DNA of 64,000 nt from NCBI GenBank assembly GCA_050015075.1, contig JBEKCB010000003.1, forward strand, positions 160,001 to 224,000. The letters run 5' to 3'. Position 1 is the first letter of the stretch. Every line of letters starts with the position of its first letter. Below, piece after piece: positions 15,899 through 31,966 of this stretch. Below the pieces are notes generated by a model. It ran no database searches, had not been told where the DNA came from, and saw nothing but the letters and a program-made list of their open reading frames with translations. The position numbers and the translations under genes were made by a program. This DNA is from Candidatus Brocadiia bacterium. GTDB lineage: Bacteria > Planctomycetota > Brocadiia > CAIUPP01.

Positions 15899-15948
15899 CG
15901 CCGCCGCGCCCCGCCCGCCGCTGCCGCGAATGAGGAAAGAGCCCGACC

Positions 15949-17133
15949 ATGAGCGAGACCGTCGCGTACTTCGACTGCTTCTCCGGCGCCAGCGGCGACA
16001 TGATCCTCGGCGCGCTGCTCGACTGCGGGCTGCCGCTGGAGGCGCTCGTGGCCGACCTGGCGCTGCTCGCGCCCGGGCTGATCCGGCTCCGCGCCGAGAA
16101 GGTCCTGCGCGGCGGCATCCGCGCGCTGCAGGTGACGGTCGAGACCGCCGACGAGCCGCAGCCTCCGCACCGCAGCCTGGAGACGATCCGCGCGATGATC
16201 CTCGGCTCGCGCCTGCCGGAGCGCGTGAAGGAGCGCGCGATGGCGGTCTTCACGCGGCTCGGCGAGGCCGAAGCGGCGATCCATGACGTGCCCGTCGAGA
16301 AGATCCACTTCCACGAAGTCGGCGCGCTCGACGCGATCGCGGACATCGTCGGCGCGGTCGCGGGCCTCGAGCGGCTCGGCGTCGGCGCGGTGTTCTTCTC
16401 GACGCTGCACCTCGGCGGCGGCACGGTGAAATCGCAGCACGGCACGCTGCCGGTGCCCGCGCCGGCGACGGCTGCTCTGGTCGCCGGCTTGCAATGCGAA
16501 CTCGGCCCGATCTCGCGCGAACTGCTCACGCCGACCGGCGCGGCGATCCTGACCACGCTGGGCCGGCAGGGCTCGCCCGGCCCGCTGCGGGTCGAGCGCG
16601 TCGGCTACGGCGCGGGCTCGCGCGACAACGCGGACCACCCGAACGTCCTGCGGCTGATGCTCGGACAGGCGGCGCCCGCGGCCGAGGCGGACGCGGCCTG
16701 GGTGATCGAGGTCAACCTCGACGACACGACCGCCGAGGTCATCGGCCACACCATCGAGCAGCTTCTCGCCGCCGGCGCGCTCGACGCCTGGGCGGCGCCG
16801 CTCCAGATGAAGAAATCGCGGCCGGGCTGGATGCTCTGCGCGATCGTCCAGGACGAGTCGCTCCGCCGCGCCGAGGAAATCCTCTTCCGCGAGACCACCA
16901 CCTTCGGCATCCGCCGCCACCGCGTCGAGCGGGCCAAGCTCGCGCGCGAGCTGCGCGCCGTCGAGACGCCGTTCGGCCCCGTCCGCGTCAAGGTCGGCAC
17001 GCGCGACGGAAAGCTCGTCACCGCGTCGCCGGAGTACGAGGACTGCCGCCGCATCGCGCTCGAAAAAAACGTCCCGCTGCGCGAGGTCATGGACGCGGCG
17101 CGGAGGGCATTCGACGGAGAACGGCGAACCTAG
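15949..17133 (+). CDS. larC: Nickel pincer cofactor biosynthesis / nickel insertion protein LarC (DUF111)
   Basis: YFDCFSGASGDMILGAL, IHFHEVGALD, HGTLPVPAPAT, TPTGAA, NLDD, MKKSRPG, PEYEDC. Confidence 0.93.
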   Translation: MSETVAYFDCFSGASGDMILGALLDCGLPLEALVADLALLAPGLIRLRAEKVLRGGIRALQVTVETADEPQPPHRSLETIRAMILGSRLPERVKERAMAVFTRLGEAEAAIHDVPVEKIHFHEVGALDAIADIVGAVAGLERLGVGAVFFSTLHLGGGTVKSQHGTLPVPAPATAALVAGLQCELGPISRELLTPTGAAILTTLGRQGSPGPLRVERVGYGAGSRDNADHPNVLRLMLGQAAPAAEADAAWVIEVNLDDTTAEVIGHTIEQLLAAGALDAWAAPLQMKKSRPGWMLCAIVQDESLRRAEEILFRETTTFGIRRHRVERAKLARELRAVETPFGPVRVKVGTRDGKLVTASPEYEDCRRIALEKNVPLREVMDAARRAFDGERRT

Positions 17134-17154
17134 AACACCCGACGCCGAAGTGGT

Positions 17155-17319
17155 AGTGTGGCGTTTCGGAAATAAGTTCCGTAATACGCGGTCATTCCGA
17201 GCGAAGCGAGGAATCTCATACGCAGCGTGCAGGCAACGGTTTGTGGTATGAGACCCTTCGCTGCGCTCAGGGTGACGCGGTCTGGACTCAAGCGTGCCAC
17301 TTCCGGAATACGATACTAG
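17155..17319. repeat. Nested palindromic element (GTCATTCCGAGCGAAGCGAGGAATCTC-type core inside TAGTGT...ATACTAG arms)
   Basis: Inner IR 17191-17276 gtcattccgagcgaagcgaggaatctc...gagacccttcgctgcgctcagggtgac; between convergent genes. Confidence 0.7.
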
Positions 17320-19205
17320 GTCAGCGGTGAATGCGCGGTCATTGACACTCCGGCCGCGTCCAGGAATTCCCTGCACCACATCTCCAGGCAGATCAGCGTC
17401 CAGAGCTGGCGGCGCTCGAACATGCCGTAGCGGGGGCGGTTGAGGAGGCGCGCGACGGCGGCCGGCTCGAAGAGGCCCCGGCGGCGGACCGCGTCGGGGC
17501 CGAGAAGTTCCTGCACCATCCCTCGCATTTCGCCCGCAGCCCATTGGCCGACGGGCACCGCGAAGCCGGTCTTCCGGCGGCGGACGATATCCTCCGGCAG
17601 CAGGCCGGCGGCGACGCGACGCAGGATGCGCTTGCCCTCGAGTCCGCCCAGTTTCCATGACGGCGGCATGTGCATGACCGCCTCAACGACGCGGTGATCC
17701 AGGTACGGCACGCGCGCCTCGACGCCGTGCGCCATGGTCATGCGGTCCACCTTCACGAGCAGGTCGTCGGGCAGCCACGTGGCCAGGTCCATGCGCAGCA
17801 GTTGCTGCAGGTACGGCTCGCCGCCGGGCCGCAGGAACCGGCGGACGGCTTCGTCGGCCGGCGCGATGGTCCGGCACGATGCCTTGAGCCCATCCGAGTA
17901 CAGCCCCGCCTTCTCCGTCTGCGTGAAGACCGACTTCAGCGCCAGGTACGCCGCGGGCCGGTCCTCCAGGCCGGCGGCATACTCCGCGCCGCGGGCGGCG
18001 GCGGTCCAGCGGGAGAATTTCGAGAGCACGAACCGTATCGCGGCCGACGGGCTGACGGCGGAGAGCCGGTCGGCCCAGGCGAGGATCTTGTAGTGCGAGT
18101 AGCCCGCGAACAGCTCGTCGGCGCCCTCGCCGGTCAGCACCACGGTGACGCACGGCTTGGTCAGCTCCGCCATGAAGTACGTCGGGATCGCCGCGGAATC
18201 GGCCACCGGCTCGTCGAGTGCGCGGATGATCTTCGGCAGGCCTGCGACCGACTGCCGGCGCACGACCAGTTCGCGGTGGTTCGTGCCGAACCGGTCCGCG
18301 ACGCGGCGCGCGTACGGGCGCTCGTCGAAGCCGTGCTCCTCGAAGCCGACCGAGAACGTGTTCACCGGCGTGTGCGACGCCAGGGACATCAGCGCGACCA
18401 CCAGGCTGCTGTCGAGTCCGCCGGAGAGATAGGCGCCCAGCGGCACGTCGCTGATCATGCGGCAGCGGACGGCCTCCTCGAGATGCGCGCGCAGTTCGGA
18501 GGCCTCGACCGCGAAGGGCCGGCCCTTGTGGATCGGCTCGGCGCGCGGCAGTTCCCAATACCGCCGGATGACGCAGTGTCCGTCGCGGACGGTGAGCGTG
18601 TGTCCCGGCGGCAGCTTGCGCGCGCCTGTTACGATCGTCCGCGGCGCGGGGACGTACATGAACGTCAGGTACCGGTCGAGCCCTTCGGGATCGAGTTCGC
18701 GGGCGACGCCGCCGTGCGCCAGGATCGCCTTAAGCTCCGAGGCGAAGAGGAACCGCCCGCCCGGCAGTTCGGCGTAGAAGAGCGGCTTGATCCCGAGCCG
18801 GTCGCGCGCCAGGAAGAGCGTGCGCTCGACGGAGTCCCAGATCGCGAAGGCGAACATGCCGATCAACTGCTCGACGCAGCGCTGGCCCATCTGCTCGTAG
18901 AGATGGACGATGACTTCCGTGTCGCTCTGCGTCCGGAACGTATGCCCCTGGCCGATCAGTTCGCCGCGGAGTTCCCGGTAGTTGTAGATCTCGCCGTTGA
19001 AGATGACGTGATAGCGGCCGGACTCGTCGCTCATCGGCTGGCGGCCGCCGGCGAGGTCAATGATGCTCAGCCGCTCGTGGAGGAGCGTGGCCGAGTCGTC
19101 CTCGTAGGCGCCCTGCCCGTCGGGCCCGCGATGGCGGATCGTCGAGCGCATGCGCTCGGCCGCTTCGCGGTCCCTTGGTCCGATCCAGCCGCTGATCCCG
19201 CACAC
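17316..19205 (-). CDS. asnB: Asparagine synthase (glutamine-hydrolysing) family amidotransferase
   Basis: MCGI, HRGPD, RLSIID, NGEIYN, RDRLGIKPL, LSGGLDSS, GEGADELFAGY, EARVPYLD. Confidence 0.93.
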   Translation of the reverse strand: MCGISGWIGPRDREAAERMRSTIRHRGPDGQGAYEDDSATLLHERLSIIDLAGGRQPMSDESGRYHVIFNGEIYNYRELRGELIGQGHTFRTQSDTEVIVHLYEQMGQRCVEQLIGMFAFAIWDSVERTLFLARDRLGIKPLFYAELPGGRFLFASELKAILAHGGVARELDPEGLDRYLTFMYVPAPRTIVTGARKLPPGHTLTVRDGHCVIRRYWELPRAEPIHKGRPFAVEASELRAHLEEAVRCRMISDVPLGAYLSGGLDSSLVVALMSLASHTPVNTFSVGFEEHGFDERPYARRVADRFGTNHRELVVRRQSVAGLPKIIRALDEPVADSAAIPTYFMAELTKPCVTVVLTGEGADELFAGYSHYKILAWADRLSAVSPSAAIRFVLSKFSRWTAAARGAEYAAGLEDRPAAYLALKSVFTQTEKAGLYSDGLKASCRTIAPADEAVRRFLRPGGEPYLQQLLRMDLATWLPDDLLVKVDRMTMAHGVEARVPYLDHRVVEAVMHMPPSWKLGGLEGKRILRRVAAGLLPEDIVRRRKTGFAVPVGQWAAGEMRGMVQELLGPDAVRRRGLFEPAAVARLLNRPRYGMFERRQLWTLICLEMWCREFLDAAGVSMTAHSPLT

Positions 19206-19244
19206 ATTGATATCCGCATAAGAAACCCGGCGGCGGCTCTAGCT

Positions 19245-19301
19245 GCTCGTAGTGTGCCCGTCAGGGCATACGACGTAGCGCCTGACGGCGCCACTACAAG
19301 C
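19245..19301. repeat. GTAG-type REP doublet (REPIN-like), copy 1
   Basis: gctcgtagtgtgcccgtcagggcatacgacgtagcgcctgacggcgccactacaagc; 4 copies in window. Confidence 0.9.
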
Positions 19302-19308
19302 GGCCGCT

Positions 19309-20313
19309 TCAACGCGTATTCACGTACGGAGCAATCGCGAAGTCCCGGTGAGCATTCGGATCGCCGGCCTTGCCCGCCTCGGCCGCTTTCACGATGTTGT
19401 ACGCCTCGCGCGCGGTGACGTAATGAAGCCGCCACGCGCTTTCCTTGTACCGCTTCGCGAGGTGCGAGTGCAACTGCTGCATGCCGGAATTGAAGTACGC
19501 GCTGAAGTTCTGCGGCCGCGCGCCGTGCATGTGCACCTTGACGAAGACCCATTCCGGCCGGCCGACGACGCTGACGTTCGCGGCGACCCATCGGTCCACG
19601 CGCCGCGGCCTCGGCGGCATGTGCGCCTCCATCGAGCAAGTCAGGCGGAGCCGGTCGGCGATCCACGGCAGCGCCGGAATCCACCCCGCCGGCCGCGGCA
19701 CGCCGCTCAGCCGGCCCGGGCCCTGGAAGATCATCAGGTCGCCCGACGGCTTTCCGCCGGCGTGCACGTCCTCGCCCGTGTCGTACGACTTCGGCCGCGC
19801 CGGATCGTCCGCCGCGTAATAGATGCTGTTGCATTTGCCCGGCTGCATTCGGCCCCAGGCGGGAAACGTGAAGTCCGCGTAGCAGTTCGCCTGGCGCAAC
19901 ACGGCGAGTTCGTCGTTCACGCCGCAGTGCTCGTCGCCGCGCGAGTTGTCGAGCGACCACTTGCCGTGCACGAAGCCGAACGTGGAGACCGGTTCCGGCC
20001 CGATGGTGATCAGCGCGCCGGACCGCGCGTAAACTGCCTTGCGCCGCTCCAGTTTCTCGCGAAGCCCGTCGGCGGTATCGCGGCTGTGGTGCAGGTGCAC
20101 TTCGATCTCGCCGAGCCCCATCCGGCAGAGCGCTCCGAGCGAGTCCAGCACGGCCGGGTCCTCGGCATCGTAAAACCAGGTATGCCGTGGACTGCGCCCG
20201 TCGGAATCGGTGAACGCTTTCGCGACTTCGGGATAGCCCTGCCTCCACGCCGCGACCGACTCGGCCGAGCGCGGCTCGAAATGGTCGGCGAAGAGGAAGA
20301 TCAGGTGGCGCAC
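19309..20313 (-). CDS. Conserved hypothetical protein of polysaccharide clusters (His-rich putative metal-dependent hydrolase)
   Basis: DHFEP, EVHLHH, FVHGKWSLDNS, CYADFTFP, WVFVKVHMHG, LHYVTARE. Confidence 0.7.
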   Translation of the reverse strand: MRHLIFLFADHFEPRSAESVAAWRQGYPEVAKAFTDSDGRSPRHTWFYDAEDPAVLDSLGALCRMGLGEIEVHLHHSRDTADGLREKLERRKAVYARSGALITIGPEPVSTFGFVHGKWSLDNSRGDEHCGVNDELAVLRQANCYADFTFPAWGRMQPGKCNSIYYAADDPARPKSYDTGEDVHAGGKPSGDLMIFQGPGRLSGVPRPAGWIPALPWIADRLRLTCSMEAHMPPRPRRVDRWVAANVSVVGRPEWVFVKVHMHGARPQNFSAYFNSGMQQLHSHLAKRYKESAWRLHYVTAREAYNIVKAAEAGKAGDPNAHRDFAIAPYVNTR

Positions 20314-21476
20314 GGCGTGGCTCCATGCTCGGCGCGAAGCAGGACCGCCTCGTACTCGGCGGCGATTTTATCCCATGAGAAATCCGCGGCTCGCGACAGC
20401 GCGTTGCGGCTCATGGAACGCCAGGTCTCCGCGTCGCCGAGGAGGCGCGCGGCGGCGCGCGCGAGCGCGTCCGGGGCTTTCGGCGGGACCAGGATTCCCT
20501 CGCGGCCGTCGGTGATCGTCTCGCGGATTCCCGGCACGTCGGAGGCCACGCACGGCAGGCCGGCGGCGAGCGCTTCGAGGATCACGTTCGAGTGCCCCTC
20601 GGCGTACGACGGCAGCAGCAGCAGCGAGGCGGACTGATAGGCGGCCGGCAGCGCAGCCGGATCGAGCCAGCCGAGGAACCGCACCTCCGAGTTCGATCCG
20701 GCGGCGCGCAGAGCCGCGGCCTGCGCCTCGAGCGCCGCCCGCGACGGTCCGTCGCCGATGATCGTCAGCCGCGCCGGCCGGCCGAGCGCCCGCTCCAGCG
20801 CCGGCAACGCCGCAATCGCGTCCTGCACGCCCTTGAATTCCTGCAGCCGCCCGACGAAGAGCAGTTCCATCCTGTCCGGCGGCACGGAGCGCTCCCTGGG
20901 CGGCTTGAACCGCTCGGTGTCCACGCCGTTCGGAATGACCTCGATGCGCGCCTCCGGAAGGACGGCCAGCGCCGCGAGCCGGAGCGCATCGCTGACGGCG
21001 ATCAGTCCGGCCGCGTCGCGATACATCCGGCGCAGCAGCGGCCGCGTCAGCGCGTGCAGCCGCTGATGGGCGGCCAGCTCCGGCCGCGGCACGTCCGATC
21101 CGCGCAACGAGAGAACGTACGGGATGCCGCGCCGGCGCCACAGCCGCCACGCCGCCGGCCCGCCCGGAATCCCGAAGAACGCGCAGACGACCGTCGGCTT
21201 CATCTCGTCCGCCAGCCGCCGCGCCGCCGGGATGCTCCTGCGCATGAACGAGAGCAGCTCGACCGGCGTGCATTGATCCGGCTTCTTCCGCCGCACGCGG
21301 AGGCGATGGATCGCGACGCCGTCGCTCTGTTCCCGCTCCGGCAGCCCAGGGAAAAGCGAGGAGAGAATGGCGACCGAATGGCCCCGGAGCGCCAGGCGGC
21401 GCGCGATTTGCAGCGCCGCACGCCCGCCTCCGCCGCCGATCGGGGGAAGCTCGTAGCTGATGAAGAGGACCCTCAT
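20301..21476 (-). CDS. Glycosyltransferase family 4
   Basis: MRVLFISYELPPIGGG, IPNGVD, FVGRL..KG, PSYAEG..NVILEALAAG. Confidence 0.93.
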   Translation of the reverse strand: MRVLFISYELPPIGGGGGRAALQIARRLALRGHSVAILSSLFPGLPEREQSDGVAIHRLRVRRKKPDQCTPVELLSFMRRSIPAARRLADEMKPTVVCAFFGIPGGPAAWRLWRRRGIPYVLSLRGSDVPRPELAAHQRLHALTRPLLRRMYRDAAGLIAVSDALRLAALAVLPEARIEVIPNGVDTERFKPPRERSVPPDRMELLFVGRLQEFKGVQDAIAALPALERALGRPARLTIIGDGPSRAALEAQAAALRAAGSNSEVRFLGWLDPAALPAAYQSASLLLLPSYAEGHSNVILEALAAGLPCVASDVPGIRETITDGREGILVPPKAPDALARAAARLLGDAETWRSMSRNALSRAADFSWDKIAAEYEAVLLRAEHGATPCAT

Positions 21477-22456
21477 GCGCCGCGGACGCCCTCGCCGGAA
21501 TGCCCCGGAGCCGAGCCGCCGCTGAACCGCTCGCGCACGACGTACGTCGGTTTCTCGTGCAGCTCGTAGTAAGTCCGGATCGTGATCTCGCCGAGCAGCC
21601 CGATGCAGATGAACTGGAACCCGACCAGCACGCAGAGCCCCGAGAGGATGAAGAACGGGTTGCCCGTGATATTGTAGCCGGCGAAGTACTTCATGAGGAC
21701 CGTCAGCGCCAGGAAGAGGAAGCCGACGAGAAATGAGGCGATGCCGACCTTGCCGAAGACCTGGATCGGCCGCGTGGAATAGCTGACGAGGAACTTGACG
21801 TTGATCAGGTCGAGGATGACCGGGACCACGCGCTCGAGGCCGTACTTGCTCTTGCCGGCGACGCGCGCGCGGTGGCGCACGGGGACCTCGGCGACGCGGA
21901 CGCCCATCCACGCCGAGAGCGCGGGAATGAAGCGGTGCATCTCGCCGTAAAGGCGGAGGCCGCGGAGCACCTCGCGGCGGTAGGCCTTCAGGGAGCAGCC
22001 GTAGTCGTGCAGGCGCACGTTGGTAATCTTGCTGATCAGCCGGTTGCCGACCCAGCTCGGGAGGCGGCGCGTCAGCCAGGCGTCCTTGCGGTCCTTGCGC
22101 CAGCCGCTGACCACGTCGTAGCCTTCGTCAATCTTCGCGAGCAGCAGCGGGATTTCGCGGGGGTCGTTCTGCAGATCGCCGTCCATCGGGCAGATCACGT
22201 CGCCGGTGGCGATGTCGAAGCCGGCCGAGAGCGCCGCCGTCTGCCCGAAATTCCGGCGCAGCCGAAGCACCGTCACGCGCGGATCGCCCGCGCACGCCTG
22301 GACGAGCCGCTGGTAGGTGTCGTCGGTCGAGCCGTCATCCACGAAGATCATCTCGGCGATGCGCTTCTCGGCGTCCGCGAACTCGCGAAGCTCGCGGCAG
22401 AGCGGCTCGACGTTCATCGCTTCGTTATGGAGCGGCACGACGATGCTGACTTTCAT
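21473..22456 (-). CDS. Glycosyltransferase family 2 (ArnC/GtrB-like)
   Basis: SIVVPLHNE, VDDGSTD, RRNFGQ, MDGDLQNDP, DYGCSLKAY, EMHRFIP, two C-terminal TMs. Confidence 0.93.
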   Translation of the reverse strand: MKVSIVVPLHNEAMNVEPLCRELREFADAEKRIAEMIFVDDGSTDDTYQRLVQACAGDPRVTVLRLRRNFGQTAALSAGFDIATGDVICPMDGDLQNDPREIPLLLAKIDEGYDVVSGWRKDRKDAWLTRRLPSWVGNRLISKITNVRLHDYGCSLKAYRREVLRGLRLYGEMHRFIPALSAWMGVRVAEVPVRHRARVAGKSKYGLERVVPVILDLINVKFLVSYSTRPIQVFGKVGIASFLVGFLFLALTVLMKYFAGYNITGNPFFILSGLCVLVGFQFICIGLLGEITIRTYYELHEKPTYVVRERFSGGSAPGHSGEGVRGA

Positions 22457-22595
22457 GGGCATTATTCTAATCGCAATCGGCGCGGGAATCCACTGCTCTT
22501 CCAGGGGCTTTTGTTGACAATCGCCGGATGCTTTGGGATATTGAGCGCGGCGAGGAACGTTCAACAAAATCAATTATGGGCTATGCGACGCCGCC

Positions 22596-23711
22596 ATGCG
22601 CAAGGAAGCAACATATGCAGCCGCGACCAAAAAAGCGGCTCGTCTGATTGTAAAAGAAAAGAAGACGGAAGCAAGAGCTGTCCTCCAAGATGCTCTAGGA
22701 CGAGCGGTCGCGGCGAAGCAGGAAGGATATGCCTTATTCTTCCAAGGTGAATTGGCGTTCTTGGATGGTGAGCCGCTCAAAGGCTTCGAACTTGAGAAGC
22801 GGGCAAGAGAGCTTAAGCCAAGGTCACTTACAATTCTGCGAACTTTAGGGCTAAAAAGCTTAGCTCTCGGCAGGCTCGCAGAAGCCATTGAACGGTTCGA
22901 TGAGATACTGGCTATTAGGCCTAGAGATGCATGGGCACGGCTTTGCCGCTCGAGTGCCCAACTTAGCATTACCATTGCTGGCTTGAAAACGCACTTCGAT
23001 GAGATCAGTGCCGCGCGCGAAAAGGAGGAGCAAAGGATAAAGCTGGATGCGTGGCGGTCGCTTTCGGCCAGGGCCGCACACCGAATCGGAAATCAACTTT
23101 TCGCCTCCATGGGCGCTTTGCGGACGCTCTCAAAGCTGGACGTCCCCGAAGCACGAGAGGCTGTTGAAGATCTTTCGGGCAACGTAGATAGAATACGAAG
23201 GATCGTGCAGGAGTTTCAGCGTTTCAGCGCAAATGAGGCGCCCAGGTTACTACCAGCTGACATTGCGGTCCTCGTCAGCGATGTCGTACGACGTCACACG
23301 GACTTGAAACCGAACATTGCGCTCTCCTCGCAGGTTCAGGGACCATTTATTTGCGAAATCGACCGCATCCAGTTCGAGCAGGCGCTGGGAGAGCTGCTTG
23401 AGAATGCAATGTTTCACACTAAGCCTGGCGGGGAAATCACTGTCCGTGTCGAGCCGGTTGAAGCGCCGAACGCGCAGAATGTTCGAATCATCATCCAAGA
23501 CACAGGCGCCGGGATACCGCCGCAATCGAAGGAGCGCATATTCCAGGCCTTTTACAGCACCAAGCCGGGCGGCAGCGGTCTCGGGCTTGCCATCGTCCGC
23601 CAGATTGTGGAAAATCACAAAGGAACGATTCGAGAGACAGGACAGGAAGGGGCAGGCGCGCGTTTCGAGATCGTCCTGCCCGTGAAGGCACGCGAGGAGA
23701 GCCGCCAATGA
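22596..23711 (+). CDS. Cytoplasmic sensor histidine kinase with N-terminal TPR-like helices
   Basis: H-box AAHRIGNQL, LLENA, IQDTGAGI, IFQAFYSTK, GSGLGLAI; no TM segment. Confidence 0.9.
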   Translation: MRKEATYAAATKKAARLIVKEKKTEARAVLQDALGRAVAAKQEGYALFFQGELAFLDGEPLKGFELEKRARELKPRSLTILRTLGLKSLALGRLAEAIERFDEILAIRPRDAWARLCRSSAQLSITIAGLKTHFDEISAAREKEEQRIKLDAWRSLSARAAHRIGNQLFASMGALRTLSKLDVPEAREAVEDLSGNVDRIRRIVQEFQRFSANEAPRLLPADIAVLVSDVVRRHTDLKPNIALSSQVQGPFICEIDRIQFEQALGELLENAMFHTKPGGEITVRVEPVEAPNAQNVRIIIQDTGAGIPPQSKERIFQAFYSTKPGGSGLGLAIVRQIVENHKGTIRETGQEGAGARFEIVLPVKAREESRQ

Positions 23712-24328
23712 AAGTACTAGCGATTGACGATCAGGCCGAGGCGCTCAAGCAAATCGAGAAGGCCCTTTCCGGCGCCAAAGGTCCCGACGACATGCCGTAT
23801 GAAGTCATGGCGCTGGCGGACCACCACGCGGCGCTGGAACTCCTGACGAGAGAACATTTTGACGTCATCGTCACCGACATGGTTATGGGCAACCAGGAGA
23901 AGGAAGGGCTGGAGATTCTTCGCGAAATGACGGGCAAGTCGCCGATAACTATTGTCCTGACTGCCTATCCTTCAATTCCGAATTGTGTCGCTGCGATGCG
24001 CGCGGGCGCATGGGACTATCTTGAGAAGACGCCTGCAGATGGGAGTGATCCATATGAGATCCTGTTGAATTCTGTGAGCCAAGCATGCCGAGAGCGGCTG
24101 GCAAGGCCTGAGGCCGGCCGCGTGAACCCGGACGCTACATGGGTTAAAGACCACTATGAAGAACTGACGGCAAAGTATGCCGGAAAGATCGTTGCGGTTC
24201 TCGATGGGAAGGTGGTTGACGAGGACGAGAACTACGGAAAGCTGGCGGAACGCGTCAAGCGCGATTACCCTGTTGCCGTGCCTACGCTAGTCTTGGTGCC
24301 GGACACAAAGGTGGATGCAATCGATTGA
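23708..24328 (+). CDS. Response regulator: receiver domain fused to DUF5678-like C-terminal domain
   Basis: AIDDQ, IVTDMVM, LTAYPS, DYLEK; C-terminal WVKDHYEELTAKYAGKIVAVLDGKVV. Confidence 0.85.
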   Translation: MKVLAIDDQAEALKQIEKALSGAKGPDDMPYEVMALADHHAALELLTREHFDVIVTDMVMGNQEKEGLEILREMTGKSPITIVLTAYPSIPNCVAAMRAGAWDYLEKTPADGSDPYEILLNSVSQACRERLARPEAGRVNPDATWVKDHYEELTAKYAGKIVAVLDGKVVDEDENYGKLAERVKRDYPVAVPTLVLVPDTKVDAID

Positions 24329-24750
24329 ACAACTTCTGCAACGGCCACAACTACGTTCTTGCGATAAGGCGCGTTCGCCGTACGCCCGCGTCCGAGATCG
24401 TTGTCGAAATGTCAGGCGCTTCCCCGATTTTCCAGCCTGTGTTCGGGAAGGTTGATACGGGGGCTTACCGAACCGTGCTCAACTTCGATACCGCTAGAGC
24501 GCTTGCCATCGCCGACCCGGAGGCAAATTGCATTCGTCGCGGCACCGCGAAGTCAGCAACAGACGAGCCAATCCCTTATTTCGTCCACAGGGTCTTAGTC
24601 CAAATATCAGACAACGGTTGGCCACCGATTCTATTCCCGTTAGAGGCTGCGTTCGCAGAAAAGGTGAAGCGGAACCTTTTCGGCATTGACTGGCTGCAGA
24701 ATCTATGTCTGGCCTTCGATAGCTCCTCCGTACACTTCCTCCGAGACTAA
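24325..24750 (+). CDS. Retropepsin-like (clan AA) aspartyl protease
   Basis: KVDTGA catalytic motif and NLFGIDWL (hhG-D) motif; TTGA overlap with the upstream stop. Confidence 0.8.
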   Translation: MNNFCNGHNYVLAIRRVRRTPASEIVVEMSGASPIFQPVFGKVDTGAYRTVLNFDTARALAIADPEANCIRRGTAKSATDEPIPYFVHRVLVQISDNGWPPILFPLEAAFAEKVKRNLFGIDWLQNLCLAFDSSSVHFLRD

Positions 24751-25130
24751 TCTCATATCGGGCGCGTCAGAGTTGGAGAGCTGACGGAAGCGTCTCCAAA
24801 TATCTGGCGGCCACGGCCGAATCGTATGGTATTCTATTCACAAACCTTCCGCCAGTCCAGAGGCATCCGCGCGGGGCCGGCAACCGCGGGTATAGCGGGG
24901 AGACTATGGCGCCGGCTCCAGTGCATGCCGCGGTTTCAGGCCTTCGATAGCGCGTGAGCCGGGCTTGATCCGGAAAACCCCCACTTAAGCAGGTCCCTCC
25001 GTCGGATTCTTCGGCGGCGCTGCCCGGTACGCCTTTTGCTCTTCCTGGAATGCGCACTTCAGAACGCCCCTGGCTTCAAGGGCGAAAAACCTTCCCTGTC
25101 CAGCCGATGCGCGAACGCGCGGGAACTCGA

Positions 25131-25721
25131 ATGAGAAAGACGACGATTGCGATGGCGTTTTCGGCCGCGCTGATTTCAGCGCCGGCCTGGGCGGGAATCA
25201 CCGGCTCGCCGCACGACCTCTCCAGCCGGCTGGGCACCGGGCAGGTTTGCCTGCCGTGCCACGCGCCGCACGCGGGATTGAATGCTTCGGCCGGGCCGGT
25301 GTGGAACCACGCCTTGTCGAAGGCGAGCTTTACGCAGTTCGGGGCGCCGCTCAAGTTGACGGGCGACTCGGTGCTCTGCATGGGCTGTCACGACGGGGTG
25401 ACGGCGGTGGGCGATTTCAACGTCGCGAGTCCCGCGGTCCGCGTCAGCCCCGACGTGGCGAACCTGGCGATTCAAAAGCTGCCGGGCGCAAATCCCGCGA
25501 ACGACCTGGGGACCGATTTGTCCGGCATCCACGCGGTCAGCGCGCTCTACGAGGCGACGCGCGCCTCCATGAAACCGATTACGGCCCTGGGCCCGCTGCG
25601 TTTGCAGGATGGCAGGGTCGAATGCACCACCTGCCACGATCCTCACAGCAGCCTGTACGGGAAGTTCCTCAGAATGTCGAACGCGCACAGCGCGATGTGC
25701 CTCACGTGCCATGCCGTTTGA
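25131..25721 (+). CDS. Periplasmic tetraheme cytochrome c (doubled CxxCH / cytochrome c3 family)
   Basis: Signal peptide; CLPCHAPH, CMGCHDG, CTTCHDPH, CLTCH. Confidence 0.9.
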   Translation: MRKTTIAMAFSAALISAPAWAGITGSPHDLSSRLGTGQVCLPCHAPHAGLNASAGPVWNHALSKASFTQFGAPLKLTGDSVLCMGCHDGVTAVGDFNVASPAVRVSPDVANLAIQKLPGANPANDLGTDLSGIHAVSALYEATRASMKPITALGPLRLQDGRVECTTCHDPHSSLYGKFLRMSNAHSAMCLTCHAV

Positions 25722-25739
25722 GGCGGCGGCCGCGCCGGA

Positions 25740-26357
25740 TTATGAAATCAAGTGCATCGCCTGCAGGAAACTCTTGCAGGCGGCCGGGGCGAGGATCAGC
25801 GTCAGGGCGAGTCCCGAGACGGCGCCCCAGAGGTGCGCGGCGTGGTTGACGCGCGTCTGCCGGAACCGCGCAGAGTAGTAGCTGTACGCGACGAAAACAA
25901 TGCCGAAAAGCCAGGCCGGCATCGGGATCACGCCGAAGATCAATATCGTGTCCTTGGGCGCGTAAAGGATGAAGCTGAAGATCACCGCCGTCACCGCGCC
26001 CGAGGCGCCCACGCAGAAATAATCCGGGTCGTCCCGGTGTTTCACCACGGTCGTGATATCGCTCAGGACGAGCGAGGCGGCGTAGAGCACGAAGAACTGC
26101 CAGTGCCCCATCAGTTGTTCGAGCAGGAACGCGAAGAAGTAAAACGAGAACATGTTGAAGATGAGATGTCCGACGTCGGCGTGGATCAGGCCGCTGGTGA
26201 GGAAGGTGTAGTAGCGGCGCTCGCGGACCAGGCTCCACGGGCTCAGCGCGAAGAACCGGAACAGGTCCGGGTACTGCCACGCGATCAGGCTGGTCACGAT
26301 GGTGAGGACCAGGATGAAGAGCGCGACGGGCGACTGCTGCATAACGCCGCTTTCCAT
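25740..26357 (-). CDS. Rhomboid intramembrane serine protease
   Basis: HLIFNM, GASG, NHAAHLWGA. Confidence 0.92.
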   Translation of the reverse strand: MESGVMQQSPVALFILVLTIVTSLIAWQYPDLFRFFALSPWSLVRERRYYTFLTSGLIHADVGHLIFNMFSFYFFAFLLEQLMGHWQFFVLYAASLVLSDITTVVKHRDDPDYFCVGASGAVTAVIFSFILYAPKDTILIFGVIPMPAWLFGIVFVAYSYYSARFRQTRVNHAAHLWGAVSGLALTLILAPAACKSFLQAMHLIS

Positions 26358-26451
26358 GGCTGCCTTTCGATGGGCTGTGGAAACACAGCTGGTATCATAC
26401 CTGTTTTCCGGCGCCGGCGGTCAGGCCCGCAGGGCGGCGGCGGGCCCGGCA

Positions 26452-26934
26452 TCAGTCACGGCGGGATCGGCTTTGCTTGGCAGGCCTTGTCGCGCCCTCT
26501 TCGGAAATCGGGTCGAGCACATCCAGGAACGGAAAGCGGCGGAAGTCCAAGTCGTGCGTATAGATGGTCTTGACGCCGTTCTCCCGCATCAGAATCGCCG
26601 TGTGGGCGTCGAATACCAGGTTCCCCGAAATGTCGGGCACTTCGGCGAGGATCTCGGCGACGACCTGGCGGTGACGATCCGTTTCGGCCAGCACTTGGAG
26701 GTTAGATGAGGCGAATAATGCTTCCAGGAACTGCCATGACTGCCCTAAGGTGAAGGGACGCTGCAAGACGCGAGGATGTGTTGTTACGCGCAGGAACTCG
26801 TAAGCAATGCCCCAAGTCACATACCACGCCTTCTGCTGAGCACGCCAGCTTTCGATGAGGCGGCCGCACCTGGCGTTCTCGGGCGCATCCCGGTTGGCGG
26901 CATAGATCAGGATGTTGGTGTCAACGACGAACAA
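26452..26934 (-). CDS. vapC: VapC-family PIN toxin
   Basis: VVDTNILIYA, YEFLRVTTHPR, GNLVFDAHTA, THDLDFRRF. Confidence 0.9.
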   Translation of the reverse strand: MFVVDTNILIYAANRDAPENARCGRLIESWRAQQKAWYVTWGIAYEFLRVTTHPRVLQRPFTLGQSWQFLEALFASSNLQVLAETDRHRQVVAEILAEVPDISGNLVFDAHTAILMRENGVKTIYTHDLDFRRFPFLDVLDPISEEGATRPAKQSRSRRD

Positions 26935-26936
26935 AG

Positions 26937-27170
26937 CTAGCGTTCCATGACTTCATACAGGGCGTCGCGGTCGGCCACATCGACGCGCGCGGCGCCGCCG
27001 TGGAACTGGGGGAGTTTCGGGCGTTGAGCCGTACCCGCGCTCGGCGGTTTTGGAGTGATGAGATCGCGCAGTGCTGCCTCGACCAGCGCAGACATCGTCT
27101 GCCCGCGGCGCGCAGCCTCTCGCTTCAGCGCACGCATCGTCACGTCGCTGATATTCAATGTGGTTTTCAT
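26937..27170 (-). CDS. vapB: VapB-like RHH antitoxin
   Basis: MKTTLNISD...LKREAARRGQTMSALVE; directly upstream of the PIN gene. Confidence 0.85.
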   Translation of the reverse strand: MKTTLNISDVTMRALKREAARRGQTMSALVEAALRDLITPKPPSAGTAQRPKLPQFHGGAARVDVADRDALYEVMER

Positions 27171-27174
27171 ATGG

Positions 27175-27792
27175 TTAACCATATCTTGCAGGCGGCGGGA
27201 TGTCAACGCGGTTGCGCACCCTCGGGCAGGCCCGCAGGGCGGCGGCGAGGGCGGCGGCGGCTCGGCGGGCGGCTTGCTTCACCGGGGCGGAAAGCGGCCG
27301 GCCGTATTCGTGCGATTTCGGCTGAATGCCGAGGATCAGGACTTCGCACGGGAACGATTGCTGGAGATACTGGACGAGGACGTTGACGGGCATGTTGTGG
27401 GTCGAGATCGAACTGCCGCCGCGCAGGAGGCCGTGTTGAACCAGGGTGATGCTGCCGGGCTTTTTCCGGGCGACGTCGGCGGCGTCGAGGATGACGAGGT
27501 GCGTGGGGCGGAATTTCTTGATCTCGCCGGTGAGGTTTTCCGGAGCGGTCTCGCCCAGGAAAATGCGGAGCGACTTACGGATGGACGATGGACGATGGAC
27601 GATGGACAGTGTCGCGCAAGCGCGACAGGATTGAACGGCTTTTTTGCGCGCTTTCGCCCTGATGCGGCGCAGCTCTTCGGCGGCCTGGAGGCCTGCGGCG
27701 TCATCGCCTCTGAGCGACGAGCCGATGGCGAGGACGGCGACGCGGCGCGCGTCTTTGAGGTTCCGGCGGACGGCGGTCTTCAGCGATTCCAT
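27175..27792 (-). CDS. hycI: Hydrogenase maturation endopeptidase (HycI-like)
   Basis: VLAIGSSLRGDDAAG, ETAPEN, ILDAA, STHNMP, ILGIQP. Confidence 0.88.
   Translation of the reverse strand: MESLKTAVRRNLKDARRVAVLAIGSSLRGDDAAGLQAAEELRRIRAKARKKAVQSCRACATLSIVHRPSSIRKSLRIFLGETAPENLTGEIKKFRPTHLVILDAADVARKKPGSITLVQHGLLRGGSSISTHNMPVNVLVQYLQQSFPCEVLILGIQPKSHEYGRPLSAPVKQAARRAAAALAAALRACPRVRNRVDIPPPARYG
27580..27607. repeat. (GATGGAC)4 heptamer array inside hycI
   Basis: Four exact copies; same unit as at 38434-38500 and 39236-39250. Confidence 0.9.
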
Positions 27793-27848
27793 GAGCGGCC
27801 CCTGCGCTTTTCCACGCGCGAAGCGCAAAATGCTTCACTTCGCGCTCT

Positions 27849-28241
27849 TCACTTTTCAGGCTTCTTCGGCTCCGGCTCGGGACCCGGCGCGGGCTGGATG
27901 ACGATTCGGAGTTTGCCGCGGCTGAGCTGCGCCAGCTCGAAGTCGCCCGTCAGCCGCAGCGTGTCCTTGGGACATGAATCCACGCATTGCCCGCAGGCGA
28001 TGCACTTGGCGATGTCAATGTGCGCCTCGAACTTCTTGTCGCCGACCTTGACGATCTCGATCGCGGCGGCCGGGCAGTCGCGCATGCACAGCTTGCAGCC
28101 GATGCACTTGGCCGGGTCGAAGGCCAGCTTGCCGCGGAAGTCCGCCGGCATCGTGACCTTGACGTGCGGATAGCGGACCGTGGCGGGCTTTCTCCCGACC
28201 GACCGCAGCACTTCCTGGAGCATCTTCCCCGCCTTCGTCAT
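27849..28241 (-). CDS. Hydrogenase 2x[4Fe-4S] subunit (EchF/HycF/NuoI-like)
   Basis: PATVRYP, FRG, CIGCKLCMRDCP, CIACGQCVDSCP. Confidence 0.9.
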   Translation of the reverse strand: MTKAGKMLQEVLRSVGRKPATVRYPHVKVTMPADFRGKLAFDPAKCIGCKLCMRDCPAAAIEIVKVGDKKFEAHIDIAKCIACGQCVDSCPKDTLRLTGDFELAQLSRGKLRIVIQPAPGPEPEPKKPEK

Positions 28242-29203
28242 GGGCCGACCGGTCCTTTCATCAGTCCTTTCGCCGCCAGGTCAATGAGCAACTGGAGGAA
28301 CGCGACCGGGGCGACGTAGCGCCAGCAGAAGGTGACCATCTGGTCTATGCGCAGCCGCGCGAAGACGCTGCGGAGGAGCGAGATGAGGCAGACGATCGCG
28401 AAGACCTTGACCAGGTACAGCCCGAACCCGACCTCCGGCCCCAGGTTCAGCCCGAACGGCAGGTAGACCGCCGCGAGCAGCGAGCCGCCGACGATCATCT
28501 CGACGCTGATCGCCATCCGGAAGATCGCCAGCAGCTTGCCGCTGTACTCGGTCAGCGTGCCGGCGACGATCTCCGTCTCGGCCTCCGGCGCGTCGAAGGG
28601 CACGCGCTCGAGCTTGCCCAGGAGCGCCAGCAGGCCGACCGCCAGCCCGATGACGTTGAAGAGCATGTGCAGCGGGTGCGCGGCGTAATACTTCGTCAGC
28701 TCGCTGAGCGACCAGGTGTCGGCCAGCAGCGCCGGCGCCAGGATGCTCAGGACGAGCGGGACCTCGTAGGCGAAGAGCTGCGTGATCGCGCGCGCCGCGC
28801 CGATCATGGAAAAGAGCGACCGCGAATACCACCCGCCGAGGAAGAACGCGACGGTCGGGATGCTCAGCAGGTAGAGGACCACGATCGCGTCGCCCTTGAA
28901 CGCGTAGAGCGCCGAGGACTTCCAGATGGGGATGTACATCAGCGCGGTGACGACCGAGGTCAGCGCGACGAGCGGCGCGATGGCGAACATGGGCCGGTCC
29001 ACGAGTTCCGGGACGAGGTTCTCCTTGGCCATGAGCTTGATGAAGTCGGCCCAGGGCTGGAACCACGGCGGCCCGACGCGGTTCTGCAGCCGGGCGCAGA
29101 CCTTGCGGTCCACGTATTCCGCGAACAGCGCCATCGTGGCGAGGAAGAGCAAGCCGGGGAAAATCAGGATGTGGAACAGGACGCCGGCCAGGGTGTGCTC
29201 CAT
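28238..29203 (-). CDS. Hydrogenase membrane subunit (EchB/HycD/NuoH-like)
   Basis: DRKVCARLQNRVGPP, DFIKL, PFDAPEAETEIVAG...EYSG, RLRIDQ. Confidence 0.92.
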   Translation of the reverse strand: MEHTLAGVLFHILIFPGLLFLATMALFAEYVDRKVCARLQNRVGPPWFQPWADFIKLMAKENLVPELVDRPMFAIAPLVALTSVVTALMYIPIWKSSALYAFKGDAIVVLYLLSIPTVAFFLGGWYSRSLFSMIGAARAITQLFAYEVPLVLSILAPALLADTWSLSELTKYYAAHPLHMLFNVIGLAVGLLALLGKLERVPFDAPEAETEIVAGTLTEYSGKLLAIFRMAISVEMIVGGSLLAAVYLPFGLNLGPEVGFGLYLVKVFAIVCLISLLRSVFARLRIDQMVTFCWRYVAPVAFLQLLIDLAAKGLMKGPVGP

Positions 29204-30429
29204 TATCGGTTCTCTCCCGCGCGGAAGTTGCGGTTCAAGGCCGAGAAGTCCACGCCGCGCTTGCGGTGCCACTCGATGCCGTACTCGCGCAACTGGCCCC
29301 AGGTCATGACGCCGTCGCGGGCGGATCCGGCGACTTCGATCAGCCGGTCGGTGCAGGAGAAGCACGGGTCAATCGCGGCGACGACGATCGGCAGGTCGGC
29401 CAGGTAGCCGTCCTTGAGCATGTGGGCGACGGCCTGGACGTTCGCGAGCGTGGGCGCGCGGACTTTCACGCGCTCGGGCTTCTCCGTGCCGTTGGACTTG
29501 ACGTAATGCGCGTCCTCGCCGCGCGGCGCCTCGTAGCGGACGAACGCCTCGGCGGCGGGGACTTTGCGCGGCGCCTTGACGGCGATGGGGCCTTCAGGCA
29601 GGTTCTCGATGAGTTGCCGGATGAGGCGGTAGCATTCCATCAGCTCGCCGCAGCGGACGAGCGTGCGGCCGTACACGTCGTTATGGTTGTCGGTGATGAC
29701 GTTGACGGGGACCTCGGCGTACGCGGCGTACGGATCGTCCTTGCGGCAGTCGCGCGGCACGCTGGAGGCACGCGCGGTCGGGCCGACGGCGCCGAGCCGC
29801 ACCGCGTCGTCGTGCGAGAGCGCGCCGACGCCGGAGAGCCGCTTGGCCAGCGTCACCTCTTCGGTCGCGACGGTGATGTAGTACTTCGTCCGCTCCTCGA
29901 GCACCTTGACGCCCTCGAGGATCTTCAGCTTCTGCTCGGAGCTGACGTCGCGCCGGACGCCGCCGATGGTGTTGATGCCGTAGTTGACGCGGTTGCCGGT
30001 GAGCATGGCGAGCAGGTCCATCACCACCTCGCGGTCGCGCCAGGTGTACATCAGCAGCGTGTCGAAGCCGACCTCGTGGCCGGCGACGCCGAGCCAGAGC
30101 AGGTGGCTGTGGACGCGCTCGAGCTCGCCGACGAGGCTGCGGATGTAGTTCGCGCGGCGGGGGACTTCGAGCTGCGCGCATTCCTCGACGGCCATGGCAA
30201 AGGCGGTGGCGTGCGAGTGCGAGCAGATGCCGCAGATGCGCTCGACGAGGTAGAGGTCCTGAATGTACGTGCGCGCCTCGCAGGCCTTCTCGATCCCGCG
30301 GTGGTTGTAGCCGAGCCGGATGCCGGCCTTCATGATCTTCTCGCCGCTGAGGGTGAGCATGAAGCTCGTCGGCTCTTTGAGCGCCGGGTGTTGCGGCCCG
30401 ATGGGCACTTGCAGATTCGCATCAGGCAT
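29203..30429 (-). CDS. Group 4 [NiFe]-hydrogenase large subunit
   Basis: GPQHP, HRGIEK, L1 ERICGICSHSH, EAPRGE, L2 DPCFSCTDR plus C-terminal extension. Confidence 0.95.
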   Translation of the reverse strand: MPDANLQVPIGPQHPALKEPTSFMLTLSGEKIMKAGIRLGYNHRGIEKACEARTYIQDLYLVERICGICSHSHATAFAMAVEECAQLEVPRRANYIRSLVGELERVHSHLLWLGVAGHEVGFDTLLMYTWRDREVVMDLLAMLTGNRVNYGINTIGGVRRDVSSEQKLKILEGVKVLEERTKYYITVATEEVTLAKRLSGVGALSHDDAVRLGAVGPTARASSVPRDCRKDDPYAAYAEVPVNVITDNHNDVYGRTLVRCGELMECYRLIRQLIENLPEGPIAVKAPRKVPAAEAFVRYEAPRGEDAHYVKSNGTEKPERVKVRAPTLANVQAVAHMLKDGYLADLPIVVAAIDPCFSCTDRLIEVAGSARDGVMTWGQLREYGIEWHRKRGVDFSALNRNFRAGENR

Positions 30430-30443
30430 GGTCCACCTCCATT

Positions 30444-30532
30444 CAGCCGCGTTCGCGCGAAGGCTCGAAAGACCCGAAGTCCGGGACGGTCACATCCGTC
30501 CCCCTCTTTCGCGGGTTCGCGTTTGCGCGGCT
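30444..30532. repeat. Imperfect GC-rich palindrome upstream of the hydrogenase large subunit
   Basis: agccgcgttcgcgcgaaggctcgaaag...ctttcgcgggttcgcgtttgcgcggct. Confidence 0.6.
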
Positions 30533-30533
30533 A

Positions 30534-30579
30534 GTGTTTAGTTGCGTAAATTGGCGTACCAATTTACGCAACTAAACAC
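30534..30579. repeat. Perfect 21-bp AT-rich inverted repeat
   Basis: GTGTTTAGTTGCGTAAATTGG-cgta-CCAATTTACGCAACTAAACAC. Confidence 0.95.
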
Positions 30580-30678
30580 GGCCCAACGGAACGCATAACT
30601 CGCTATAACGACGCGGTTTATTGCGGTCATGCTTCTTTGCGGAAATAGGACGCCTATTTCCGCAAGGAAGCACTACCG

Positions 30679-31173
30679 TCAATCTCTCTTTCGCGGGGCG
30701 CCCGGAAGGCTCTCCGCCGTCCAGTCTTTGCGCAGCGGGTGCTGGCCCGCCGGCCAGTTATCCGGCAGCGGATACCGCGGGCCTTCCGGCAGGCCCTGCA
30801 CCTGGAAGCCCAGCAGGTCCACCAGTTCGCGTTCGTAAGCTGCGGCGGCCGGGAATCGGGCCGTGACGCTCTGCAGGACCGGCTTGTCCTTGGGCAGAGC
30901 GGTGGCCAGGTTCAGGACGACGCCGCTGGGCCGCGCCAGGTGATAGATGACGCCGAGCGTGGCGCCCAGGTCGAGCCCGGTCATCGCGCAGAGGATCGTG
31001 AACTGCATCCGATCCTGAAGGTGGCCCAGGACCTCGGCGGCCTGGTCGGCGGGCGCTTCGGCGAACATCCGCCGCGCGCGCGCAATGCGGATCTTGGCGT
31101 CCAGGAATGGAAATTTCCCGGCGAGTTCGGCCTGAATCGCCTTCTCTTCCGTCATGGCATTTTCACCGGACAT
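30679..31173 (-). CDS. Hydrogenase subunit (EchD/NuoC-like)
   Basis: LCAMTGLD, YEREL.DLLG, WPAGQHPLRKD. Confidence 0.88.
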   Translation of the reverse strand: MSGENAMTEEKAIQAELAGKFPFLDAKIRIARARRMFAEAPADQAAEVLGHLQDRMQFTILCAMTGLDLGATLGVIYHLARPSGVVLNLATALPKDKPVLQSVTARFPAAAAYERELVDLLGFQVQGLPEGPRYPLPDNWPAGQHPLRKDWTAESLPGAPRKRD

Positions 31174-31193
31174 GGCCGCCCCGATTCATGATA

Positions 31194-31625: not shown

Positions 31626-31629
31626 TCGA

Positions 31630-31962: not shown

Positions 31963-31966
31963 GAGA

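Follow-up and report, generated by a model that had tools for sequence, protein, structure and literature searches.

A window of 64,000 nucleotides from Candidatus Brocadiia bacterium (Planctomycetota; Brocadiia; CAIUPP01) was analysed (assembly GCA_050015075.1, contig JBEKCB010000003.1, positions 160,001–224,000 of the forward strand). It contains a cassette of three overlapping genes, encoding a histidine kinase, a response regulator (RR) and a small retropepsin-like protease, surrounded by housekeeping genes. Comparison with related loci suggests that the cassette is a horizontally acquired, self-contained two-component system that has a protease, and not a promoter, as its output. The RR probably controls this protease post-translationally, through a C-terminal DUF5678 domain. 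The host is a peat bacterium represented by a metagenome-assembled genome (MAG).

Organization of the cassette

All three genes lie on the plus strand, and their limits are taken from the list of open reading frames (ORFs). The kinase gene (22596–23711) encodes 371 amino acids, the RR gene (23708–24328) 206, and the protease gene (24325–24750), which has a TTG start, 141. The kinase and RR genes share the four bases ATGA (23708–23711), and the RR and protease genes share TTGA (24325–24328). The initial annotation of the window had pointed out these two overlaps and an excess of A/T-ending codons over the neighbouring genes; both features were recovered here. The G+C content at third codon positions is 0.58, 0.64 and 0.65 for the kinase, RR and protease genes, respectively, whereas it is 0.81–0.96 in eight of the eleven neighbouring genes computed, 0.79 in hycI and 0.71–0.74 in a vapBC-like pair downstream. 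The sliding-window GC content is 0.525–0.583 across 22200–24899, as compared with 0.64–0.74 upstream. No hydrophobic stretch was observed in any of the three proteins: the maximum 19-residue Kyte–Doolittle means are 0.97 for the kinase, 1.25 for the RR and 0.98 for the protease.

In the metatranscriptome run X24, a 238-nt contig covers the overlap between the RR and protease genes (24197–24434) with zero differences. This might be a weak hint that the two genes are joined in one transcript, and carry-over of DNA may also account for it. X24 covers only this part of the cassette, and the lack of cover elsewhere is uninformative.

The response regulator and its DUF5678 domain

The RR is composed of a receiver domain followed by a DUF5678 domain. 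The receiver matches Response_reg (PF00072) with an E-value of 3e-15 (56.8 bits, against a cut-off of 30.2). In the alignment of 25 relatives having both domains (REC-DUF5678), the phospho-acceptor Asp57 (23876–23878, plus strand) is invariant, and Asp8 and Thr85 are at least 90% conserved. The lysine of the DYLEK motif (Lys107 by count) is present in the window RR; its column varies among the 25 relatives and is not on the list of conserved positions. This means that the receiver has the intact Asp, Thr and Lys residues claimed for it, the Lys being a variable position in the family.

The DUF5678 core spans RR residues 152–199 (24161–24304, plus strand). It matches PF18929 with an E-value of 1.7e-8 and 34.6 bits, above the cut-off of 23.2, over model positions 1–48 of 49. 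In a six-frame search of the genome, the RR scored 37.2 bits and was the single DUF5678 match. The full domain, including two leading helices, corresponds to residues 140–199 approximately. The output domain described earlier only as DUF5678-like, in place of a helix-turn-helix, can thus be assigned to this family.

The AlphaFold model of the RR has a predicted local distance difference test (pLDDT) score of 90.5 and a predicted template modelling (pTM) score of 0.81, and shows the receiver followed by a helix-helix-strand-strand-helix-strand arrangement. The fold of this model matches the NtrC1 receiver (Z 16.5). When residues 140–205 of the ESM Atlas model of the RR were compared with a stand-alone DUF5678 cluster of 68 amino acids, the TM-scores were 0.85 and 0.86, both sides of this comparison being predicted models. 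A search of the ESM Atlas by features gave no usable match. A profile search of the PDB with 34 DUF5678 sequences returned one match (S2hlx_EX_19, E 0.5), which was judged meaningless.

Relatives of the domain were collected by an exhaustive phmmer search with the last 77 residues of the RR against 1.84 billion representatives, which gave 75 matches at E ≤ 0.001; a word-index homologue search with the same part of the RR had returned only the RR itself (1 of 26 candidates). The Pfam scan covered 44 of the 75, mostly longer ones. A receiver domain is present in 21 of these 44, and 17 of the 21 also have a Pfam DUF5678 match. Other architectures were observed in the scanned set. P0079 has RHH_1, a ribbon-helix-helix (RHH) domain, and two DUF5678 copies; P0105 has a sub-threshold FitA-like RHH and DUF5678; P0044 has a sub-threshold Phd/YefM match and two DUF5678 copies; and P0080 has a semialdehyde dehydrogenase and DUF5678. 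Tandem DUF5678 copies occur in several of the scanned relatives. Judging from the receiver, RHH and tandem architectures, DUF5678 seems to behave as a protein-binding module on which regulatory heads are grafted. Four repeat proteins without a DUF5678 match (P0035, P0048, P0059 and P0073) were regarded as false phmmer matches.

The RR might instead be an ordinary transcription factor, with DUF5678 as a small DNA-binding domain regulating the protease or other genes. Most response regulators are transcription factors, the RR lies in an operon open to autoregulation, and two of ten relatives looked up carry the public name "DNA-binding NtrC family response regulator". This name, however, reflects the receiver domain only. 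Neither a helix-turn-helix nor a match to a DNA-binding family was revealed by the Pfam and NCBIfam scans of the RR. The output domain is acidic, with a mean net charge of −3.3 and a charge of zero or less in 23 of 25 sequences, and the separate RHH DNA-binding domain on P0079 and P0105 would be redundant if DUF5678 itself bound DNA; both features argue against DNA binding by DUF5678. In addition, the domain is found directly fused to a protease in two loci (L019 and L033, see below). A role as a DNA-binding output seems quite unlikely.

The retropepsin-like protease

The protease had been read as a single-domain aspartyl protease with a DTGA motif, and the family comparison and the predicted fold are in agreement with this. 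The window protein alone is below the gathering cut-off of Pfam PF13975 (17.5 against 28.2 bits). Each of the 19 aligned sequences of the family, among them the window protein, matches this model at E ≤ 0.1, the best E-value being 1.9e-7; the L046 homologue exceeds the cut-off with 38.0 bits. The family is therefore placed in the retropepsin-like clan AA. The window protease has no NCBIfam match at E ≤ 1, the cut-offs of TIGR02281 and TIGR03698 being about 57–58 bits; some of the DUF5678-linked proteases give sub-threshold matches (16.9–34.6 bits) to TIGR03698 (clan_AA_DTGF) or TIGR02281 (clan_AA_DTGA). Among 45 candidates, 29 homologues were found at E ≤ 0.001, most of them full-length and 142–143 amino acids long. 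The TTG start is supported by full-length homologues (46–58% identity) that cover the whole protein.

The catalytic motif DTGA is formed by residues 44–47 (24454–24465, plus strand). In the alignment of 19 sequences, Gly41-Lys42-Val43-Asp44, Gly46-Ala47, Arg116-Asn117-Leu118-Phe119-Gly120 and Asp122-Trp123-Leu124 are invariant, and Thr45 is at least 90% conserved. The AlphaFold model (pLDDT 83.4, pTM 0.77) matches 116 PDB chains at E ≤ 0.001 in Foldseek. Among the PDB matches listed, all are retroviral proteases, Ddi1 or the Rickettsia protease APRc, the structures of the last (5c9b, 5c9d and 5c9f) having E-values of about 1e-4. APRc is membrane-embedded. Clan AA retropepsins dimerise to build one active site, to which each chain contributes one Asp, and the window protease is assumed from its fold to act as a homodimer. 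Residues 1–22 are conserved despite being poorly modelled (Asn6 and Gly7 are invariant, and Phe10 nearly so). From its conservation, this N-terminal extension might be a binding surface.

In the tree of 27 partner-linked proteases, the window protein falls into a clade with support of 100/99. This clade groups it with proteins of metagenome contigs and of MAGs assigned to Planctomycetota and Chloroflexota, and not with the DUF5678-linked proteases of the window's own phylum. The REC-linked proteases form a clade of their own, with support of 100/99.

Linkage of DUF5678 to retropepsin-like proteases

The association between DUF5678 and the protease is not limited to receiver-containing proteins. 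Of 401 genomes from the phylum of the window, 23 have PF18929 matches, counting the window's own genome, as compared with none of 14 control genomes. There are up to three places per genome, and 29 places lie outside the window's genome. At 15 of these 29, DUF5678 is followed on the same strand by an ORF of 110–153 amino acids, overlapping or at most 7 bases away, that matches a retropepsin Pfam family at E ≤ 0.01. Two further places (L019:1289–1888 and L033:1072–1671, on two contigs of genome G129) are single-chain fusions of 200 amino acids, in which DUF5678 occupies residues 14–57 and Asp_protease_2 residues 94–173. Two more (L010 and L017) are borderline, with a retropepsin Pfam E-value of 0.011. 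DUF5678 thus adjoins, or is fused to, a retropepsin-like gene at 17 of the 29 places, or at 19 when the borderline cases are counted. This is in line with the statement in the initial annotation that stand-alone DUF5678 genes precede such proteases. The D[TS]G motif is present in all 27 adjacent or fused proteases checked and also in the protease of L023.

Heads other than receivers are grafted onto DUF5678 in this set as well. A dUTPase-DUF5678 fusion of 244 amino acids (L031:928–1659) and a TPR-DUF5678 fusion of 362 amino acids (L024:601–1686) are each immediately followed by a retropepsin-like gene.

It should be mentioned that in L029:340–2260 a DUF5678 gene without a protease is flanked by a UPF0175 gene and by a CRISPR-associated gene of the RAMP superfamily. 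A retropepsin-domain protein near type III CRISPR systems is described for Sulfolobales in the available part of a published report (PMC3973734).

Binding between the RR and the protease was also addressed by complex prediction, a check proposed in the initial annotation. The protease alignment was paired with the alignment of RR residues 130–206; these were our own alignments, so that the benchmark counts hold only roughly. In the benchmark, 116 of 157 solved complexes attained the mark, as did 2 of 215 mismatched pairs; scores of 0.60 or less were obtained for only 18 of the 157 solved complexes and for both mismatches that passed. The three runs for the RR and the protease scored 0.56, 0.39 and 0.56, and the best of three controls scored 0.00. 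The runs share at least 4% of contacts, and the partner pLDDT is at least 75. The mark was thus passed, and the result was graded as weak support. Since natural fusions and strict adjacency already make binding likely, the complex score adds modestly to the case for a physical interaction between DUF5678 and the protease, which the model weakly supports. It is silent on whether DUF5678 inhibits or activates the enzyme.

Adjacency and a weak complex score suit a substrate as well as a regulator. DUF5678 might be cut by the protease, or might be a processed pro-domain, with phosphorylation deciding whether the RR is cleaved; the L019 and L033 fusions do resemble retroviral or zymogen precursors, in which an upstream segment is removed by the chain's own protease. 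However, enzyme–substrate pairs are rarely coupled so strictly one-to-one, with 4-bp overlaps, across phyla, and the N-terminal heads on DUF5678 (REC, RHH and TPR) are of the kind typically found in regulators or antitoxins. A conserved linker resembling a cleavage site was not identified, no systematic search for one having been made. Processing of DUF5678 as the main event seems unlikely, and control of the protease by the RR is considered in what follows.

Conservation of the gene order

The initial annotation had proposed a search for other REC-DUF5678 fusions and their neighbours. The order of kinase, receiver-DUF5678 protein and protease is found again in metagenome contigs and in MAGs of Planctomycetota. 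With the protease as the query against the genome collection, the trio was found in L002, from a Planctomycetales MAG (TPR kinase of 475 amino acids, RR of 206 and protease of 143), and in L005, from a Brocadiia MAG (478, 206 and 142). L004, from a Planctomycetota MAG, contains the RR and the protease. In all three of these readable loci, the REC-DUF5678 gene lies directly upstream of the protease gene with a 4-bp overlap. The contig of L003 is cut 50 bases upstream of the protease, and L006 was rejected as a spurious protease match of 26 residues.

Metagenome contigs were searched with the RR family, and the best 80 of 300 relatives, most of them plain receivers, were taken. The DUF5678 profile detected seven ORFs of RR length on these contigs, one of which belongs to the window's own contig. 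In L046, the RR is followed by the protease. In L047, the order is a kinase of 331 amino acids, RR and protease; in L048, a PocR kinase of 811 amino acids, RR and protease; and in L050, a GAF kinase of 829 amino acids, RR and a 160-residue Asp_protease_2 protein (3.1e-6). L059 and L085 have a kinase, the RR and an unrelated third gene. L049 falls outside the seven, as its RR is cut at the contig end, where a tblastn match shows the C-terminus of a kinase and then the RR. Of the seven readable loci found from the RR, four have a retropepsin gene immediately after it (L046, L047, L048 and L050).

In 10 of the 11 cases that could be read, the gene immediately before the RR encodes a kinase (the window, L002, L005, L047, L048, L049, L050, L025, L059 and L085). 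The sensor part of the kinase varies across the trio loci, being TPR, PocR, GAF or none. Sensors are thus exchanged while the core of the kinase stays with the RR, as is usual for a fixed output module.

The histidine kinase

The ATP-binding domain of the kinase matches HATPase_c (PF02518) at E 2.5e-27 and scores 96 bits, where the cut-off is 26.4. The matches to Pfam HisKA (E 0.0027, 18.1 bits against 26.9) and to TPR models (E 0.003–0.03) are weak, and no NCBIfam equivalog comes near its cut-off. As the HisKA score falls below the Pfam cut-off, the dimerisation and histidine phosphotransfer domain seems to be divergent. Together with the low hydropathy maximum given above, which leaves no membrane helix, these matches bear out the description of the protein as a TPR histidine kinase without transmembrane segments.

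His162 (23079–23081) is located in the H-box AAHRIGNQLF and is invariant in the alignment of the three kinases of the window, L002 and L005. Asn270, Asp302-x-Gly304-x-Gly306 and Gly325-Gly326-x-Gly328-Leu329-Gly330 are likewise invariant, so that the N, G1, F and G2 boxes are kept. An H-box of the form LDAWRxLSxRxAH(R/K)(I/L)xNxLFA is common to the kinases of the window, L002, L005, L047 and L048, whatever the sensor domain. The kinases of L002 and L005 are the closest homologues, with 46–51% identity, and show strong TPR matches (TPR_1, 4e-21). In comparison with these (L002:1042–2466 and L005:815–2248), about 105 TPR residues are absent from the window kinase, spread over three alignment gaps, whereas the core is intact.

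Insertion of the cassette

Horizontal acquisition, suggested earlier, is demonstrated by an empty site in a genome of the same genus (G001). Contig C118 of this genome is collinear with the window on both flanks, with an identity of 93–95% on the left and 84% on the right, and has a short unrelated spacer of about 15–30 nt in place of window positions 22461–24790. The 2,330 bp missing from G001 correspond to the three genes together with a 135-bp leader and a 40-bp tail. A search of 40 relatives, ranging from the same genus to the same class, detected no member of the protease family. No integrase gene is present inside the 2,330 bp, and no tRNA gene lies within 15000–32000. The RR had no match among plasmids at E ≤ 1e-10, the protease had none among phage records by tblastn, and none of 65 pattern matches of the protease family in IMG/VR viral contigs was confirmed.

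Chance neighbourhood or an assembly artefact would be another account of the cassette: the MAG has an estimated contamination of 3.78%, and the composition of the cassette is unlike that of its flanks. However, the same order with the same 4-bp overlaps is observed in other phyla, and both junctions are bridged without differences by contigs from other peat runs, the left by X8 record 29 (22236–24143) and the right by X12 record 16 (24556–25000). The empty site in G001 is precise. Both are therefore very improbable. One contig of X12 carries the joined form without the cassette, from 22460 to 24826; it may come from a related species.

Some features of the ends are to be mentioned. A promoter-like sequence, TTGACA-17-GATATT, was found by consensus scan at 22514–22542 on the plus strand, in the inserted leader 5′ of the kinase gene, with 10 of 12 matches and a TG. 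Three such sites occur in the region against 0.9 expected, and the site is no more than a pattern match. An imperfect 14-nt direct repeat (12/14), TATTCTAATCGCAA and TATTCTATTCACAA, was found by repeat scan at 22463–22476 and 24830–24843, one copy lying immediately within the cassette at its left end and the other 40 bases past the right end. It may be a footprint of recombination or may have arisen by chance, the latter being possible because the region has 27 similar short families, of which this is one.

The insertion adjoins the true start of a family-2 glycosyltransferase gene on the opposite strand. As called, this ORF starts within the inserted DNA, with a TTG at 22573. Because conservation with G001 stops at 22460, the real start is the ATG at about 22453–22461 (MPMKV...), and the 38-codon extension (22461–22573) is an artefact produced by the insertion. 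The vapBC-like pair mentioned above (26368–27227, minus strand) is composed of a PIN gene (26452–26934; PIN E 7.4e-11) and an upstream gene of 89 amino acids (26937–27206). It has no counterpart in G001, where 91 bases replace about 860. Located 1.6 kb downstream of the first cassette, it represents another small cassette that was inserted or deleted.

Proposed mechanism

In the proposed mechanism, the soluble TPR kinase would autophosphorylate on His162, and the phosphate would be passed to Asp57 of the RR. The DUF5678 domain of the RR would be the dedicated partner of the protease encoded by the overlapping downstream gene, and phosphorylation of the receiver might alter the hold of DUF5678 on the protease, by which proteolysis would be switched. 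In the unphosphorylated state, the RR might restrain the protease, in the manner of a pro-segment acting in trans or of an antitoxin. Phosphorylation, probably via dimerisation of the receiver, would then permit or drive formation of the active protease homodimer. This direction, with the unphosphorylated RR as the off state and the phosphorylated RR as the on state, is proposed tentatively. Many receivers dimerise upon phosphorylation. Because retropepsins need to dimerise, many receivers do so when phosphorylated, and tandem DUF5678 copies and dimeric RHH heads would present two DUF5678 units, the state of the head might decide the pairing of the protease chains.

Several observations weigh against control of the protease by the RR. 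In the phylum, 10 of the 29 DUF5678 places show no adjacent protease, two of them being close to contig ends. In L025, L059 and L085 (three of seven), the gene after the RR encodes 235, 277 and 184 amino acids, respectively, with no Pfam match, and is not recognisable as a retropepsin; in L025, obtained in the phylum search, this gene follows a kinase gene and a REC-DUF5678 gene. By hhalign, the L025 and L085 products did not match the protease family. In these loci, DUF5678 may serve other clients, or the protease may be encoded elsewhere. L004 has no adjacent kinase gene upstream. The sensor of the window kinase may be degenerate, and this copy might sense poorly because about 105 TPR residues have been lost. 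As for the structural predictions, the complex score lies in a range where passes are often wrong, and the prediction came without an interface; when the complete RR model was used in the fold search, only receiver domains were found, so that the DUF5678 part was barely tested.

Comparison with known systems

Almost all two-component systems studied so far end in transcription, second-messenger turnover or chemotaxis. The cassette suggests a two-component system with a non-transcriptional output, built on an unstudied module of a protease and its partner. By analogy, the closest system in logic appears to be Detocs (DtcA/DtcB/DtcC), which, in the available part of the preprint, is composed of a kinase with TPR repeats, a buffer receiver and a receiver–effector fusion (bioRxiv 10.1101/2023.01.24.525353). 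As far as that part describes it, Detocs shares with the cassette the TPR kinase, a receiver output that is an enzyme activity affecting the cell and not DNA binding, and a compact mobile operon having a fixed core with swappable parts. The two differ in that the Detocs effector (PNP and others) is described there as fused to the receiver, whereas the cassette has a receiver-DUF5678 protein and a separate enzyme. Moreover, the stand-alone buffer receiver of Detocs has no equivalent among the three genes of the cassette, whose receiver is not fused to an enzyme. PADLOC, applied to the three window proteins and six relatives, gave weak matches to unrelated candidate systems (best for the window, 1.7e-4), the presence of Detocs models in the release being unconfirmed. 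Lower E-values, down to 4.6e-8, are TPR-repeat matches of the L024 TPR-DUF5678 protein, and the cassette is not assigned to defence on the basis of these matches. The sole hint of a connection with a proposed defence system is a weak match of the DUF5678-linked protease of L013:1665–2060 to the candidate-system model PDC-M52B (9.4e-5, 20.1 bits), too weak to be used.

The cassette also resembles type II toxin–antitoxin systems. A small upstream partner gene overlaps the downstream enzyme gene, the DUF5678 places are patchy and sometimes multi-copy, as given above, some of the partners carry an RHH head, and the cassette is cleanly inserted or deleted, as is the vapBC-like pair. Unlike in such systems, the partner in the cassette carries a receiver and has its own kinase. 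Retropepsin-like proteases are not known among the toxin families. No relevant literature on a retropepsin with an antitoxin was found among open PMC papers and bioRxiv. DUF5678 and retropepsins might form a widespread undescribed family of this kind, in which the dimerisation-dependent protease is the toxin and DUF5678 the inhibitor; the window would then hold a kinase-controlled version, where phosphorylation would free or assemble the protease to cut proteins of the cell or of an invader, as a Detocs-like stress or anti-phage switch. We regard this extension as rather doubtful.

Among bacterial proteases with a similar fold, APRc of Rickettsia is described as retropepsin-like (PMC4140852), RimB works with the glutamate ligase RimK (PMC11957791), and RloA is a secreted retropepsin-like protease (PMC11957051). 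According to the available portions of these reports, they share with the window protease a single-domain clan AA fold with D-T/S-G, and no DUF5678 partner or two-component system is described in those portions. The window protease is soluble, as it has no hydrophobic segment, and has a conserved 22-residue N-terminal extension.

The L019 and L033 fusions share with retroviral precursors the order of an upstream segment followed by the protease. In retroviral precursors, the upstream transframe/p6* segment restrains the dimerisation-dependent protease until it is processed. DUF5678 has no sequence relationship to these segments, and it is a folded domain that usually belongs to a separate protein.

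No paper on the DUF5678–retropepsin pair or on a receiver-DUF5678 regulator was found among the matches listed from open PMC papers and bioRxiv; the one literature match to "DUF5678" concerns, in its available part, clubroot disease in Arabidopsis and was judged unrelated. If control by the RR is correct, direct control of proteolysis by a private retropepsin-like protease would be added to the outputs of two-component systems. It would also give a first experimental handle on DUF5678 and on small soluble prokaryotic retropepsins, both of which are widespread and uncharacterised, the phosphorylatable His and Asp and the catalytic Asp being ready positions for on and off mutants. If the pair is toxin–antitoxin-like or defensive, it would represent a new class of effector and would bear on the regulation in trans of dimerisation-dependent proteases of the retroviral type.

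RssB and CpdR are receivers without a DNA-binding output that act as adaptors for ClpXP proteolysis. The proposed action of the RR would be similar in that a phosphorylatable receiver governs proteolysis by protein–protein contact. They differ, however, in that RssB and CpdR serve the general protease ClpXP, whereas the cassette has a dedicated co-encoded retropepsin-like enzyme and a DUF5678 output. The RR scores 29.7 bits against the NCBIfam RssB model, whose cut-off is 700 bits, and RssB receiver structures are among the fold matches of the RR.

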